Shown piece after piece: positions 25,226 through 41,394 of a stretch of 64,000 bases of DNA; the first letter of the stretch is position 1, and every line of letters begins with the position of its first letter. The translations under genes and the position numbers were made by a program. The notes beneath the pieces were generated by a model that did not search any database, was not told the origin of the DNA, and saw only the letters and a program-made list of their open reading frames with translations. This DNA comes from Eledone cirrhosa (lineage: Eukaryota): contig OZ024762.1 in the NCBI GenBank assembly GCA_964016885.1, forward strand, positions 16,182,001 through 16,246,000, written 5' to 3'.

Positions 25226-26890
25226 TAACCCTTTAGCATTTAAACTGGCCGTATCCAGCTAGAATTCTCTCACCTCTTTCTATTCAAACTGGCCATAACC
25301 TGCTGCTCATACTTATGTTAAGGTATTGTTCTCAAAATTAATAATATCAAAATCTAGATTCAATATTATGTAAGATAATTATGTGAGATAAAGTGTTTAC
25401 CATGAAAATATAATAGTATATATAGAGTAATGTAAATGTTATGTGAGATAAAGCCTTTACCATGAAAATATAATAGTGTATATAGAGTAATGTAAATGTT
25501 ATGTGAGATAAAGCCTTTACCATGAAAATATAATAGTGTATATAGAGTAATGTAAATGTTATGTGAGATAAAGCCTTTACCATCAAAATATAATAGTATA
25601 TATAGAGTAATGTAAATGTTATGTGAGATAAAGCCTTTACCATGAAAATATAATAGTGTATATAGAGTAATGTAAATGTTATGTGAGATAAAGCCTTTAC
25701 CATGAAAATATAATAGTGTATATAGAGTAATGTAAATGTTATGTGAGATAAAGCCTTTACCATGAAAATATAATAGTGTATATAGAGTAATGTAAATGTT
25801 ATGTGAGATAAAGCCTTTACCATGAAAATATAATAGTGTATATAGAGTAATGTAAATGTTATGTGAGATAAAGCCTTTACCATGAAAATATAATAGTGTA
25901 TATTGAGTAATGTAAATGTTATGTGAGATAAAGCCTTTACCATGAAAATATAATAGTGTATATAGAGTAATGTAAATGTTATGTGAGATAAAGCCTTTAC
26001 CATGAAAATATAATAGTGTATATAGAGTAATGTAAATGTTATGTGAGATAAAGCCTTTACCATGAAAATATAATAGTGTATATAGAGTAATGTAAATGTT
26101 ATGTGAGATAAAGCCTTTACCATGAAAATATAATAGTGTATATAGAGTAATGTAAATGTTATGTGAGATAAAGCCTTTACCATGAAAATATAATAGTGTA
26201 TATTGAGTAATGTAAATGTTATGTGAGATAAAGCCTTTACCATGAAAATATAATAGTGTATATAGAGTAATGTAAATGTTATGTGAGATAAAGCCTTTAC
26301 CATGAAAATATAATAGTGTATATAGAGTAATGTAAATGTTATGTGAGATAAAGCCTTTACCATCAAAATATAATAGTATATATAGAGTAATGTAAATGTT
26401 ATGTGAGATAAAGCCTTTACCATGAAAATATAATAGTGTATATAGAGTAATGTAAATGTTATGTGAGATAAAGCCTTTACCATGAAAATATAATAGTGTA
26501 TATAGAGTAATGTAAATGTTATGTGAGATAAAGCCTTTACCATGAAAATATAATAGTGTATATAGAGTAATGTAAATGTTATGTGAGATAAAGCCTTTAC
26601 CATCAAAATATAATAGTGTATATAGAGTAATGTAAATGTTATGTGAGATAAAGCCTTTACCATCAAAATATAATAGTGTATATAGAGTAATGTAAATGTT
26701 ATGTGAGATAAAGCCTTTACCATCAAAATATAATAGTGTATATAGAGTAATGTAAATGTTATGTGAGATAAAGCCTTTACCATCAAAATATAATAGTGTA
26801 TATAGAGTAATGTAAATGTTATGTGAGATAAAGCCTTTACCATCAAAATATAATAGTGTATATAGAGTAATGTAAATGTTAAAGGGTTAA
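25226..26890 (+). mobile_element. TTAA MITE with an internal 60-bp unit amplified 25 times (25381-26880)
   Basis: Left end TAACCCTTTAGCATTTAAA, right end TAAATGTTAAAGGGTTAA; unit ATGTGAGATAAAGCCTTTACCATGAAAATATAATAGTGTATATAGAGTAATGTAAATGTT. Confidence 0.9.
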
Positions 26891-27048
26891 AAAAAAACAG
26901 TTTTGTATTGTAAAAGTGGGAGGTTTGGTATTAAAAGTTAAATTACAAGGGAACAACTTTATTTCTATAAATGCTAACGAGTTGTTTATTATCATTTAAA
27001 ATTTTTTCTATTTTCCTTATCTTACTTTTTTTCTTCCATTTTTTCCAG

Positions 27049-29071
27049 AACGGCTTCACCACTCTTCCTTATGCTGAAAAACAACTCGTTAGTGAAGTGT
27101 CTGCTTTGCTGAACCATAACAAGCAGTTGTTAACTCGGGTGGACCAGTTGGAAGTAGAAGTTCAGGAGTTGGAGAAGAGGCATGGGGACATCGTCTCGCT
27201 GCATCAACAAGACTCAGCAGCCGCTCGCAGTGGAGGGGGGGCATCGACAGTCGCAGCCGATGCCAACCCTCGTAACAACAACAACAACAACAATAATAAA
27301 GATGATGAAGAATGCGAGCGGCAAGAGAAAGTGGACATCAAATCTCATCCCGTCAACACCGTCACTGTAGACAACAGTAAGAAACCACTCGAGAAATCTG
27401 CTAGGAAGAGTTCAGAAGCGGCCAAGGAGGAGGAGGAGGAGAAGAGCGAGGAGGAGGAGGAGGACGAGGAAGAAGAGGAGGAGGAGGAGGAAGAGGACGA
27501 TGATGACGAAGACGAAGACGAGGATGATGACGACGACGACGATGACGATGACGACGACGACGACGATGACGACAATGAAGAGCCGATTGAAAAAACTGTG
27601 AAGAGTCAAGTGTTCAAACCTGAAAATGGCAATAAGAAATCACCTGTGGTGTGTAAAACTGAGGAGAACCGAACGAGGCAGGACAACAGCTTGTCTGTCC
27701 ACTCGCATGAGCACAAGACTTCGGAAGAATCGAGGGACAATTCCTCGTCGTCTCATTCATTATCATCATCTCACTCATCATCATCCCACTCATTGTATAA
27801 ACCAAACGGAAACAGAGAGCCGGTTACTATTTCAGTGTCAAAGTCATCTTACAAATCAAACTCCCATCATTCACCTGACTACAAGGACAAACATAGTAGC
27901 GGCTCGCACAAAAGCTCAAGTGAGTTGAAAGAGAAGAAAGCTCTTTCCTGCAGCAGTCGCATCCGTAACGGTGTGGTGAGTGATGCTGTGAAACACAGTG
28001 GTGGTGGTGGTGGTGGTGGTGGTGGTGGCAGTAGCAGTCAGATGATGCCGAGTAAGAGTAGTTGCTCGGAACATAAGGTTGCCTTCACTAACGCTAAATC
28101 TCCGTTGAAACTGCGTATAACCAGCAAATGCCTGGACGGGAGTGGAGAGAAGAACGGGCCGCCTACGTATGTTATCACACCTGTGTCCGATTCCCATCAT
28201 CATCAGCACTCACCTGTTAGCCGTCCTAGCAGTCGCAGTAGTTCTGAGTCTGCCAGCACCAACAGTGATGAGACCCATCAGAACCCCTGCACGCTGAAGA
28301 TCAGCTCTGTTGCCCTCAACCGGCAGAACAGCTCCAAGAACACCGAGTATACGAAACTGAACTCTCCGCAGTCGAGTTCCACGTCTGAAAGGTATAGTCC
28401 TTTCTCTGAGTACTCTTCAGGCACGTCTAGTAAGAGCTCCAAGAGCTACTGCTGTAAACGTTCCATCCAGTCGATGGGAGGGACAAAGATCTCCATCTTG
28501 AAGACGTCGACACGAGACTGCGACTTCCAGGTGTCCCCTGCCAATGCGGGTTCTGCCTCCCACTCACACTCACACTCAGCCTCGGCACGGGAGTGTGACT
28601 TCCAGGTATCGCCTTCCGCCGCGGGGGTCAACTACACCTCGCACACGGCTTCGGCGCGGGACTGCGACTTCCAAGCGTCGTCTCCCTCCCCCGCCGGCGC
28701 CACTTACTCCTCGCACTTGCACTCGCACTCGCACTCCCACTCCCACTCCCACTCGGAGAAGCGCAAGGAGAAGAAGAAGCACTCGTCTGGCAAATCTCAC
28801 CACAAGCATTCACATGCGAACGAGTCGAAACAGTCAAACAGTGATAATGTGAAGAATGAATGTGAGCCTTACTCCATGGACACCACCACCACCACGACCT
28901 CCACCTCCTCCACACCCCTCACCAGTATCACAGGCCCCACCGGCACCACATCTGCTGTTACTCTGCCATCAATTTCCACTCAGCTTCATGTAATGTCTTC
29001 AGATTCTTCAGGCCAGTCAACACACACAGACTTCAGTCCACGCAGATCCAGCTCTGTGAGCTCAAGTGCAG
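27049..29071 (+). CDS. DOT1L: DOT1L large exon (end of coiled coil plus long low-complexity region)
   Basis: ttttccag/gttagt, 2023 nt, phase 0-1. Starts NGFTTLPYAEKQLVSEVSALLNHNKQLLTRVDQLEVEVQELE (compare DOT1L EISAHNQQLREQSEQLEQD), then acidic, Ser-rich and His-rich tracts; GC-rich codon-like composition. Confidence 0.9.
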
Positions 29072-29104
29072 GTTAGTATTTAATTGATTGTTTAATTTCA
29101 GGTC

Positions 29105-32230: not shown

Positions 32231-32268
32231 TGCGGTGTAATCTGATGCCATGCTGTTGTAATTGACAG

Positions 32269-33035
32269 GAGGACGAAGTAAACGGCGTAAAGACACTCAT
32301 GAGTCTCCGAAGAAGAAGTGGCAGTTGCAACAACAGCAACAACTTGAAATGGGGAACAATCTGGAAGCTTTGGCCAAGTATGCCTTGTATGATGTGGAAC
32401 GGAGTCGACAGAAGCGGCGCAAGAGCCCCGACAGCGAACTACGTCGCAAACACTCCAAGAAGGATCTTGTTCCAGTTGACCAAGAGGAGCGCAGCAAACA
32501 GAAACACTGCAACTCTGTGGTCAGTGGACCACGAACGCCACCTGGCACGCCGCCATCAGACGTCGCACAAGATGCCATCTCACCTCCCGATTCTCCCATG
32601 ACGGAGCCTTCAAGTAATCCTCATTTGTGGACTGTGTGGAACAGCAGTAGTAGTAACAACAACAACAGCAGCAACAACAACAACAACAACAACAACAATA
32701 ATAGTAGTAATAATAATAGTCTGCTGACCTCGGAGAAGAAGGAGGGGGTATCTTTGGGCAATGTTAATTCAGATCGCGACCATCGAACTTCGTTAGAACA
32801 TAAATCTAGTCCAGCTTCCATTCGCGACAGCACGGACCACCCGAAATCAAATGCTGCCCTTAACAACAACACCAACACCAACACCAACACCAATACTGAC
32901 TCTTTGCACTATCAACATTTCTCTTCGGTCTCCAAGCTTCACAACCCAGCATATTCCACAGATGCTGAGAAATCTTCTACTGAGAAACACTTCAAGAAGC
33001 GCTACTTCTCCAAGACCAAGCAATGGAACCAGCAA

Positions 33036-33068
<33 letters not shown>

Positions 33069-33450
33069 GGGGGAAGCAGCAGCAGCAGCGGGGGCAGCAG
33101 TAGCGGGGGAAGCAGCAGCGGCAGCAGCAGCAAAAGTAAGCGGCTGCACAAACACTGGGAAACTGACTTCTCCACATCTCACGGGAACAGCAGCGAGCCG
33201 ACGGAGAACTACAAAAGTCAGAGCTTCGAAATAGTTAACCGAGGAGATTTAAGTGGCGGCAAGGTGATCCTTAATCGCCTCCTCACGCAGAACAGCGACC
33301 ATGTCTACAGAATCTCGGACTCCCATTCCTTAGAGCAACGAAACACAAACAGTCTACATAGTAAGCATCATAGTAAAGCTTCGTCATTTACTGGCGCTGA
33401 ATTTTCTCAGGGAGATGGAATTCCAGGTGCTGGATCTAGCAAAACTTCCA
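32269..33450 (+). CDS. DOT1L: DOT1L penultimate coding exon (low complexity)
   Basis: gacag/gtaagt, phase 1-1, open throughout (ORF 32262-33467); motifs NLEALAKYA, GPRTPPGTPP, EKHFKKRYF. Assigned to DOT1L by phase continuity, not by recognised homology. Confidence 0.82.
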
Positions 33451-33519
33451 GTAAGTATATATTGTAATTCTACACACACACACACACACACCACACACCA
33501 CACACCACACATACACACC

Positions 33520-37995: not shown

Positions 37996-38372
37996 TTAAC
38001 CCTTTAACATTTTAACTGGCCAGAATTCTTTCTGTTCCAACTGGCATTAACCGATCACTCATACTTATGTTACGGTATTGTTCTCAAAATAGATAATATA
38101 AAAAACTTATAGATTTGATATTATGTGAGGTAAAGTGTTTACTGTGAAAATACAATAGTATATATAGAGTAATGTAAATGTTATGTGAGGTAAAGCCTTT
38201 ACTGGGAAAATATAATAGTATATATAGAGTAATGTAAATGTTATGTGAGGTAAAGCCTTTACTGGGAAAATATAATAGTATATATAGAGTAATGTAAATG
38301 TTATGTGAGGTAAAGCCTTTACTGGGAAAATATAATAGTATATATAGAGTAATGTAAATGGTAAAGAGTTAA
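37996..38372 (+). mobile_element. TTAA MITE with 4 copies of the 60-bp unit
   Basis: TTAACCCTTTAACATTT...TAAATGGTAAAGAGTTAA; units start at about 38123, 38183, 38243 and 38303. Confidence 0.85.
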
Positions 38373-38645
38373 GATGAGTAAATTTGGTTATTATTTGAGG
38401 TAGGGGAGGGGTTAGTGTGGGGGTGAGTGTTGGTGTTGGGAGGGGAGAATACTGTAGAAGTTTCTAGAACTAGTTGACTTAAAATTTGAAATGGGCGCCT
38501 CCCAATGAAGATAACCAAAATAATAGTTGAGAAAATCGTGTAAGGTACTGCTGGAAGGGGTGGGGGGCAGTAGTACATATTTTGTCGATCTCTTTTGTCA
38601 AACTGCTAAGTCATGGGATAAACTGACACAGGCACACACACACAC

Positions 38646-38677
<32 letters not shown>

Positions 38678-38679
<2 letters not shown>

Positions 38680-38922
38680 CATCATAATCATCATTTTACG
38701 TCCGCTTTTCCCTGCTTGCAAGGGTGGGACGGGTCTTATTCAACACAGCATCTCTGCATTTGTCACGGTCGTTCGTCATCTCCACCGTGAGCTTCACCGA
38801 TCTGAGGTCTGTTCTCACCACCTCCGCCCATGTTTTTTGTGGTCTACCTCTACCAAGTCTTCCTTCAACCGGCATTTCCTGGCACTTCTTCACCCATCGG
38901 TCGTCCTCCATGCGCATTACAT
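38678..38922 (-). mobile_element. RTE LINE 3' end fused to the viral insert
   Basis: MRMEDDRWVKKCQEMPVEGRLGRGRPQKTW...REKRT plus (ATG)n tail; similarity to 98-341 stops abruptly at 38922. Confidence 0.93.
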
Positions 38923-40919
38923 AAATAGTCGCAAAAGGCCTGGCGTTGCTTTTGCTTCGTATTCTTTACTATCTCTTCCAGGTCCAGATCGTGACACAGG
39001 TTGTCCACAAGTATCGCGATTTGCCGACATAGAACAGATAGCCTGGAGGGTTGGGGGGGGGGGGGCGTATTGGAACCGAGTAAATGTCTGCCACAAGCCT
39101 CGAATAATCGGGAGATCTTTCCATAGCTTGATTGATAATGTTCAGTATCCATTCTTGGCATGAAGGGTCCGTATATCCGAGATATCTCAAGTAGGTTACA
39201 CCATTAATCAGATGGTCATTCTCAGCTCGAACCATCATTTGATCCAGATAGAAAATCGGCATGCCACCAAGCACTGCCGGGATAGATGATAAAACCTGGA
39301 AAATTCGGAGGTCCGTCATCTTTGGATCCCTCAATTTGCAATACCAAGTCGTCATGATCTGGGCTACTATCATCATACCTGGGAGTGGGTTTGTGCTCTT
39401 CCCCACCATGCTATGCGCGTTGGAGTAGATCGATGCGATTGAATCACTCGTGAGTAGTAGGGCATTGTTGAAACTGTATTTTTGCCCCTTTCTTCAAACA
39501 ATTGCAACCGTAAGCATCATTAACTTGGAATTCCTTGGAGAAGGATATTACGCTGCTAGGTGTAAAGGATTCAATGGAGTTGATTTCCTGGCCGATTGCC
39601 CTACTCGCAGTACCTAGAGCTTCTTTGATGTTTCAACTTACCTCTGGTATGCCGTGCCTTTGTATCTCAAACTCAGGTATTTCGGTGGCAGTGATCCAAT
39701 CATCTCCTTTCACAATGTCCCAGTGAGGGAAGCCCAACTTATCAATGGAGAGTCCTAAAGACTTTGTTTAGGTTAGGGACCAGAGTTCTTGCAACAAGCC
39801 CTCTATTCCACCTCCTGGGCCTTCCCAAGAATAGCAGCTTGTAGAGGATGGTGCATCAAATGCTGTTTCTTTGAAGGATTTCATGCAATTCTTCCACATG
39901 TTAAACCCGTAGATTTCATTAAGGAAGTCTCTGGTGTAGGAACATGTCTCATGTCGAAACACATTGTTCCACCCGTTGATGTCGACACGAACGTAAAGTC
40001 TTGTAACCAGCTCTAGCATCCCGTATCTTCCGGACAGCATAGAGCTTCTTAATCATCTCTAGATTAGAAGGAGTGAAAGCTTGATCAGGAGCAAAATATC
40101 TCATGTATTTTTTCACATGTGTGCCTAGCAACTGCTGTGTGGCTCTATTACTGAAAGTAGTTTGGCCGAACCACCGACCTTCCACGTTTAACTCAGCCTC
40201 TTTCCTGGTTAGCTTTATAACGAGTTCATCATGGAGATCCTGGAGGGCATCGACATAAAGAAATAGGAAATCTTGTAAGTCCTGTCCGGCATCACGTTTG
40301 AATAGAAAGGGTATTAGCACTTTCTTTTCTTTCCATCCAGCTTGACGAGTTTTGAAGATATATGTATCATCTGCGTGTCGGTGCAAGGCAGCTAGAGCAT
40401 GATCTTTGAGCTAAGGAATAAAATTTTTCTTGATGTCAAAGATCATATTCTTCTGTGGCCATACATCTCCCCAAGCTAACAGATCCGGCTTCCTGTCATA
40501 CTTGGTCACCATAGGGTTGTTGATCCAGACATTTCTGAGAGCCGCCTATTGGATAACTTTGTTGGTTTCTGGAGCCATCTCCAATAAGGGCCACTGATGT
40601 TTATTCTGATATGGAACTTAGAATAATCCTTCATCAGCTTACACCTCGCCTCCCACAAGAAGTTCAGATCCAAAGTCTTGATCTCCAATGTACGTGAAGT
40701 TAATTTCTCGATCCCTTGTTGGCTAGAGATATACGGGTGTCTGCTGAGCTTCTGCATACCCCCCCACTTGAGAAGTTCGGGAGTAGAGCCATTATCAAGG
40801 ATATCTACTAATTGGCGATAATTCATTCTTTTACAGCTTAGATCATCTAGGGTCTTAGTGAGGAATTCTTCATTGATCCATTGTTTGTCTTCTCTTTTCA
40901 ATACAATGCCCAGACACAT
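38923..40919 (-). pseudogene. Endogenous viral element: decayed L protein (RdRp) fragment of a chuvirus-like (Jingchuvirales) negative-strand RNA virus
   Basis: Colinear L motifs across frameshifts: GMQKLSRHPYIS; KNFIP*LKD; LVIKLTRKEAELNVEGRWFG (motif F); PDQAFTPSNLEMIKKLY; VDINGWNNVFR (A); WEGPGGGIEGLLQELW (B); IVKGDDW (C, 39699-39710); GQEINSIESF...FSK (D/E); NNALL...IASIYSNAHS; IPAVLGGMPIFYLDQMMVRAENDHL; DIYSVPIRPP. Confidence 0.9.
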
Positions 40920-41255
40920 GGAGGCACATGGCTTAGTGGTTAGAGCATTGGGCTTGCAATCGAAAGGTTGTGAGTTCAATTCTCAGACCGGGTGATGTGT
41001 TGTTTCCTTGAGCAAGACACTTTATTTCACATTGCTCCAGTTTACTCAGCTGTAGAAATGAGATGATAGGGACTGAGGTCTCTATCATTCCACCGCAACG
41101 GGGTCGTGGAGGTGCCACGGCAAAAAAGGCACCCAGCACTCACTGTAAATGGGGTTGGTGTTTAGAAGGGCATCCAGCTGTAGCAATCGAGCCAGAATCA
41201 GTTCCCTTCCCACCCTTGCAAGCAGGGAAAAGTGGACGTAAAATGATGATGATGA
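40920..41255 (+). mobile_element. SINE family A copy abutting the 5' end of the viral fragment
   Basis: Full head GGAGGCACATGGC through to the RTE tail and (ATG)n. Confidence 0.9.
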
Positions 41256-41394
41256 GGATATGAAACTGCCGGTGTTTTTACTGTATTACTAACAGCATGT
41301 TTTAATCTGTGCGTGTGTACGTGTATCTATTGTGTATATATATGCACACACACACATATATATATATGTGTGTGTGTAAATATATATATTAACC

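Follow-up and report, generated by a model that had tools for sequence, protein, structure and literature searches.

A decayed jingchuviral polymerase fragment between a LINE and a SINE in a cephalopod genome

Introduction

Arthropods, horseshoe crabs and vertebrates carry endogenous viral elements (EVEs) of the order Jingchuvirales (PMC11521997, PMC12282059, PMC10084718), and a family of flatworm jingchuviruses has been proposed (PMC9241645). The EVEs are broken fragments of the L gene, with a KGDD-type motif C, that have become fixed in animal chromosomes. Host retroelements offer two described routes by which a foreign RNA can be captured. In Aedes mosquitoes, EVEs have been captured through copy-choice by LTR retrotransposons, with virus and retroelement in the same polarity (10.1101/127498). 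Template switching by RTE-clade LINEs has been described from U6/RTE chimeras, together with opposite-sense chimeras attributed to twin priming (PMC4476161); in the former, a copy of the foreign RNA is joined in the same sense to the 5'-truncated 3' end of a LINE, and in the latter a second RNA stands in the opposite sense. A second source reports likewise on snRNA/LINE chimera patterns, and the words "virus" and "viral" are absent from its text (10.1101/2025.02.02.635956). RTE LINEs have been described in octopus (PMC9115989).

The locus described here, in a cephalopod genome, resembles the known jingchuviral EVEs in being a broken L fragment with KGDD in motif C, but differs from them in its mollusc host and in having at its ends a LINE, which is a non-LTR element, and a SINE rather than Pao/Bel LTR elements. 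It shares with the U6/LINE chimeras of PMC4476161 the same-sense join to a truncated LINE, but its passenger is 2 kb of viral RNA and a target-site duplication was not found. With the Aedes EVEs of 10.1101/127498 it shares the common polarity of virus and retroelement, but the retroelement is non-LTR, the copy is single, and no piRNA-cluster context was seen. The literature searched reports no cephalopod jingchuviral fossil in its titles and abstract openings (most subscription journals lay beyond its scope), and, among the papers listed, no junction of a viral EVE with an RTE LINE. The class of element, a jingchuviral EVE, is known; the host phylum is new as far as the literature searched shows, and the viral lineage is unnamed and deep.

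Results

The viral element and its coding content

The window, meaning here the whole 64-kb stretch of DNA analysed, contains on its minus strand a viral element that ends where the head of a SINE begins, at 40918-40920 (Table 1). The first-pass annotation had placed the element at 38923..40919; the start stands, while the viral part stops at 40917. Its description of about 2 kb of non-repetitive, GC-richer DNA with roughly 660 codons interrupted by several stops and frameshifts proved accurate: the whole 3.0-Gb genome holds one copy at the DNA level, a related protein used as query matched only the element's own locus, the GC content is 44% against 32-34% in the flanks, and 659 codons were counted. 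With four in-frame stops and four frameshifts, the element has no working polymerase product.

Table 1. Features of the locus and other L fossils of the genome. Positions are those of the window unless a contig is named.
Feature	Position	Strand	Remarks
Parent LINE copy	68-2100	-	endonuclease and RT domains; (TGA)n tail
Probable host exon, open frame	32262..33450	+	GTAAGT donor at 33451; no Pfam match
(CA)n/(TA)n microsatellite beyond LINE tail	38640..38676	.	usual landing site of the SINE/LINE pair
RTE-type LINE, 5'-truncated 3' end with (TGA)n tail	38677..38922	-	from genome matches; gap-free join to viral 3' end, same sense
L-gene (RdRp) fragment, Jingchuvirales	38923..40917	-	decayed; about residues 277-945 of full L; single copy
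In-frame stops of element	40546-48, 40411-13, 39768-70, 39633-35	-	from codon count
Frame breaks of element (n=4)	near 40612, 39995, 39495, C-run 39053-39065	-	from tblastn, pairwise and profile alignments
RdRp motif A region, DINGWNNVFR	39954..39983	-	read directly; profile match
RdRp motif B, GGIEGLLQELW	39780..39812	-	read directly; aligns with solved L proteins
RdRp motif C, KGDDW	39696..39710	-	read directly
Full-length tRNA-headed SINE	40918..41258	+	head to head with viral 5' end
Rhabdo-like L fossil, near-complete, broken	C3:130160001-130164890 (L012 1-4889)		PF00946 496 + 156 bits; methyltransferase domains
Scrambled L mosaic	C27:16993875-16998640 (L015 3875-8643)		DNA 74-77% identical to large C3 fossil
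Short L fragment, older-looking	C3:37502164-37502541 (L014 5086-5598)		40 bits to PF00946

The Mononeg_RNA_pol profile search (PF00946), which had been suggested as a check, was run on nine pieces, and five separate minus-strand pieces matched, collinear in genome order, at profile positions 276-385, 451-583, 600-690, 745-797 and 860-952 (E-values 0.0028, 9.8e-10, 5e-06, 0.12 and 0.023, respectively; just one of the five, taken alone, passes the curated cut-off). Nine window pieces also align over positions 273-949 of a jingchuviral L profile built from 46 L proteins, with scores from 138 bits down to 3 bits; the highest score among 20 base-shuffled versions of the element was 1.4 bits. The hit to L proteins on which the first reading depended is significant: by tblastn the element corresponds to about residues 277-879 of the L protein of Hubei myriapoda virus 8 (E 6e-58). 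Viral homology extends to the 3' junction, where pairwise alignment with the library protein P0003 gives 37% identity over 41 aa (E 2e-05). Homologous to an RNA-virus protein and embedded between host repeats, the element is best explained as a non-retroviral endogenous viral element.

The motifs SRHP, DINGWNNVFR, GGIEGLLQELW, KGDDW, SNAHS and LGGMPIFYLDQMMVRAENDHL were read directly on the minus strand. Almost all of the motifs listed at first pass are there, the exception being "ENFIPxLKD", which actually reads KNFIP-stop-LKD; motifs A-C stand in order and the pieces are collinear on PF00946, in agreement with the claim of a complete ordered RdRp core. The use of KGDD in place of GDNQ as a jingchuviral trait is well founded: among the 107 full-length L proteins retrieved, 94 contain KGDD and a single one GDN[QV]. 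A tryptophan after GDD is found in the element and in the unnamed proteins P0005/P0150, P0154, P0155 and P0185, and in 0 of the 107 full-length proteins.

Viral affiliation

A search of 1.84 billion protein representatives with one 153-aa piece of the element gave 147 matches. Among the 30 that were looked up, seven clusters carry a virus name, six of them jingchuviruses and the other, a weak match, the rhabdovirus VHSV (taxonomy was checked for three named clusters); the top eight library matches are unnamed fragments (seven of the eight looked up). Jingchuviral L proteins score 118-275 bits and VHSV 53 bits. The best named match is the L protein of Hubei myriapoda virus 8 (Myriaviridae), at 297 bits summed over tblastn pieces and 28-39% identity per piece; the element is 42% identical to P0005. 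When a 183-aa piece was used as query in a word-index protein search, none of the 244 candidates proved a match, and a viral contig scan with P0005 as query found none.

Phylogenies were obtained as a 147-row FastTree, from which eight ids (own pieces, duplicates and three poor matches) and rows shorter than 120 aa were left out, a 43-row IQ-TREE of 41 chosen relatives together with the element and a single piece from C3, and a mixture-model tree of 30 rows, for which 13 further rows were dropped. Some of the rows are short and sit on long branches, and the outgroup is only two rhabdo-type sequences. Against this thin outgroup, the jingchuviral ingroup of 41 rows, including the element, is supported at 100/99. 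The element forms one clade with P0005, P0154 and their kin (96 in FastTree, 100/99 in IQ-TREE, 99 in the mixture-model tree), joined next by P0067 and P0084/P0161 (97, 100/98 and 95). In the IQ-TREE the clade comprises, besides the element, P0005, P0154, P0155, P0185, P0004, P0103, P0009, P0003 and P0006, with P0067 and P0161 farther off. The five fragments of the clade that reach motif C all carry [KR]GDDW there. The sole full-length L among these relatives is P0067 (2150 aa, RGDD, on a 6.6-kb contig).

The rows that represent Chuviridae (Piscichuvirus-like, Morsusvirus, Pediavirus) group together at 100/99 to the exclusion of the element, whose lineage lies outside the clade that holds the vertebrate piscichuvirus. 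The element's clade is weakly placed as sister to Chuviridae (81/87 in IQ-TREE, 84 in the mixture-model tree), and a tree constrained to place the element within core Chuviridae is worse by 46 log units (AU p=0.0003 under LG+G4, the group having been picked after the tree was seen). The clades of Myriaviridae and of the obscuruviruses, which we take to be Aliusviridae, are separate from the element in all three trees. Membership in Myriaviridae, suggested by the top score of Hubei myriapoda virus 8, is rejected by these trees; that virus has the highest summed score yet never groups with the element, and its score reflects length and short branches. The predicted fold of P0154 (pLDDT 80) has chu-like proteins as its fold matches ranked 1-11, eight of them by name or taxonomy and three presumably so; none of the 50 fold matches listed exceeds 30% identity.

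Identity at the level of the order is accordingly close to certain: the phylogeny that had been proposed as a check upholds the first-pass assignment to a Jingchuvirales L gene, named library matches being jingchuviral except for the weak VHSV. The narrower assignment to Chuviridae fails, since the element falls outside the sampled Chuviridae clade in two trees and the constraint on the core group is rejected. In the trees the clade of the element is distinct from the sampled members of Chuviridae, Aliusviridae and Myriaviridae (no compared row was recognised as belonging to Natareviridae, Crepuscuviridae or the flatworm jingchuviruses), and the virus behind the element would represent a chu-like lineage with no named member among the viruses compared.

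Several of these relatives (P0154, P0155/P0183-P0185, P0004, P0006 and P0084/P0161) are truncated jingchuviral L sequences on 38-456-kb contigs of public assemblies, and are probably further unreported fossils in other animals, of the same or a sister clade. In the genome studied here, a strict first look run without a positive control gave no match to PF24664, the jingchuviral G profile.

Junctions with host repeats

At the viral 3' end, 40 genome matches to the LINE were scored, and the other 39 all begin at query base 129, which is position 38922; upstream of the join, 11/11 fetched copies run on as LINE. The LINE tail at the element is 93% identical to the RT-bearing LINE at window 68-2100 and differs from the majority of 11 copies at 9/228 positions (3.9%). 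The label RTE-type follows from domain order and tail type. The copy at 68-2100 also encodes a PHD-like cysteine cluster after the RT (PF00628, 28.3 bits, cut-off 24).

At the viral 5' end, the head of the SINE contains a tRNA match at 40929-40986 (31.2 bits, gathering score 29). The family has 4354 first-look candidates in the genome, of which 40 were scored, the other 39 at 95-96% identity, and this copy departs from the majority of 24 copies at 12/325 positions (3.7%). Over its final 58 nt the SINE matches the LINE tail at 93% identity, and both tails point outward from the element. A possible 3' extension of the SINE to 41454 proved to be microsatellite only, and Rfam microRNA matches near the element were likewise microsatellite, below the gathering score. 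Elsewhere in the window, 2538-3584 holds three copies of the SINE family in 1 kb, including a head-to-head pair separated by 12 nt, and members of the family insert into (TA)n runs next to the heads of other copies. Neighbours at SINE heads comprise this head-to-head pair (2877/2889) and a LINE tail adjoining a SINE head (52/68).

Beyond the LINE and the SINE no viral sequence was found in nine flanking stretches, whose best scores were -3.7 to 0.2 bits (30 random stretches, -4.1 to 4.1 bits; positive controls, 15 and 27 bits). No target-site duplication was found for the SINE, nor by eye for the whole composite, a weak test in microsatellite flanks; duplications of at least 8 nt accompany just 6 of 24 SINE copies, and lie mostly in TA runs. 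The four stops imply a divergence of 4.4-4.9% (by Poisson limits, in our own estimate, about 1-11%), near the 3.9% of the LINE and 3.7% of the SINE, values that may be low as the repeat copies compared are best matches. At a rate that we assume to be about 0.36% per million years, 4% would correspond to roughly 10 million years.

Host genome and read support

The cephalopod host proposed at first pass is borne out by molluscan hemocyanin, with 39 matches in the genome. For one unit the score is 855 bits with the single-unit entry 1js8, 738 with 4yd9_C and about 500 with the best-matching units of 3j32 and 8trz; as these entries are from octopus, squid and, for the last two, gastropods, the genome is octopod-like. 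The locus is at 16.22 Mb of contig C23. In a public run, a 2052-nt contig spans 38888-40939 with zero differences, and another sample label from that study has the element in two pieces, also without differences. The junctions, whose presence in genomic reads had been named as decisive, are covered unequally: contigs of two runs bridge the LINE side by 35 letters with no differences, and the SINE side by just 22 and 25, short of the 31 letters that the bridging rule requires (the runs may derive from the assembled animal). Four stops, four frameshifts and host repeats at both ends agree with the earlier view of a germline fossil rather than a live virus.

In two RAD-seq runs from a different study the interior of the element is almost uncovered; the few letters inside it (depth 0.2-1.7 in three bins, two of them around a G-run) may be short matches that arose by chance and were disregarded. 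Run X4 yields 88 Mb of contigs with a word depth of about 19 at the element's single-copy locus, which would fit a transcriptome or other reduced library.

Other L fossils in the genome

A PF00946 search of the genome, a strict first look that sets a floor, found three further L loci, so that there are at least three (Table 1). The large C3 fossil is called rhabdo-like from its motifs and its grouping with VHSV in the two-row outgroup. It contains an internal duplication (4601-4812 repeats 1421-1632), and a Gypsy-type pol lies about 500 nt downstream on the opposite strand. The C27 mosaic carries an inserted RTE-type LINE at 6370-7095, an inverted duplicate, and an 83-nt stretch at the end of its viral-looking block that has expanded into a tandem array (7735-8643); it was considered as a second virus-LINE chimera and withdrawn when viral sequence was found past the LINE tail. 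The C3 fragment at 37.5 Mb has no DNA match to the large C3 fossil. Together with the jingchuviral element, the rhabdo-like fossils indicate that this octopod lineage has recorded at least two virus orders.

Genomic neighbourhood

A second long, low-complexity open frame with splice-like ends lies at window 26971-29073 (+), and with the frame at 32262-33450 it probably represents exons of one host gene. Neither frame has a Pfam match or an Atlas name (best 0.87), and the next exon after the donor at 33451 was not found. The element is thus likely to be intronic and antisense within a plus-strand host gene. Also in the window are a GC-rich 79-nt minisatellite (17 copies) and, at two sites, a 60-nt satellite (8483-9829, 25379-26881 and 38121-38360).

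Discussion

The locus shows the arrangement expected of LINE template switching, a viral passenger fused in the same sense to a 5'-truncated LINE 3' end. Because virus and LINE share one sense, the LINE is truncated exactly at the join, and viral homology reaches both junctions with none beyond either retroposon, we favour capture of the element by host RTE-type LINE machinery through a template switch during reverse transcription, and consider this fairly probable. The best candidate for the template is an internal stretch, 2 kb long, of L mRNA (or antigenome) from an unnamed jingchuvirus. The virus would have replicated in, or reached, germ-line cells; the LINE endonuclease would then have nicked a (TA)n/(CA)n site such as the one beside the tail, with reverse transcription starting on the 3' tail of the LINE RNA. 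After about 230 nt the enzyme may have jumped to viral plus-sense RNA, as the gap-free same-sense junction suggests, and copied 2 kb. The far end would have been resolved against the SINE, which either was copied in the same event from the second nick (twin priming on another RNA that carried this tail) or stood there beforehand; the 58-nt tail that SINE and LINE have in common, pointing outward, matches the layout of twin priming. The inserted piece has since decayed with no sign of coding selection. A single event is favoured by the agreement of the three decay measures (LINE, SINE and stops), and a burst of the repeat families would give similar ages without co-insertion.

Alternatively, a longer viral insert may have come first, through any reverse transcriptase or break repair, the LINE and the SINE landing later and the outer viral parts being deleted. 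The C27 fossil makes this a live rival, because an RTE-type LINE has been inserted inside it: the 5'-truncated LINE joins viral sequence without a gap and without clear duplication, and collinear viral sequence resumes past its tail (L015 7096-7233). Repeats are also dense, two probes having found five RTE-type tails in the 64-kb window. Such a history requires two insertions and the loss of viral sequence on both outer sides, where none was found, and the stop count gives the virus no greater age than the repeats; we regard it as somewhat unlikely. Without any template switch, free viral cDNA could have been end-joined into a double-strand break between, or made by, two retroposon insertions, a course consistent with the lack of a duplication at the ends and with the way SINE heads attract neighbours (2877/2889 and 52/68). 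End joining predicts neither the common sense of virus and LINE, a chance of one in two, nor a gap-free join at the LINE truncation point, and appears improbable.

That the sequence is contamination, or an assembly chimera with a live virus or parasite genome, is scarcely credible: a live virus would lack four stops and four frameshifts, the locus stands 16 Mb into contig C23 between host repeats, and the element recurs without difference in the 2052-nt public-run contig and under the second sample label, even if the SINE junction is unbridged under the strict rule and independent individuals are uninformative. As to function, the element may by analogy with mosquitoes have been kept as an antiviral small-RNA source, transcribed antisense from a host intron and cut into piRNAs, a role compatible with LINE capture as the mechanism of entry. 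EVE-derived antisense piRNAs are reported in Aedes (10.1101/127498), and the element is probably intronic and antisense to a plus-strand gene; it is also an isolated single copy outside any LTR-dense cluster, with the SINE promoter directed away from it, and such a role seems very doubtful. The element is most likely a neutral fossil without function.

A wider proposal we advance only tentatively, as a possibility: the GDDW clade may rank as a family within Jingchuvirales, so far unnamed and sister to Chuviridae, whose members infected cephalopods and are also preserved as fossils in other animals. Entry of the element here may have been one three-RNA event in which the RTE LINE provided priming at one nick before the switch to viral RNA, its partner SINE primed the other, and the copies were joined head to head. 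The suggestion at first pass of an undescribed mollusc virus lineage is plausible, and access to the germline points to infection of the octopus itself; a germline copy is stronger evidence of a host than a metatranscriptome contig. The element brings molluscs into the host range of Jingchuvirales and points to a deep, unnamed clade, further members of which can be sought in public runs and animal assemblies. Its junctions offer a case, open to testing, for endogenisation of RNA viruses through template switching by RTE-type LINEs, although such LINEs favour their own tails.
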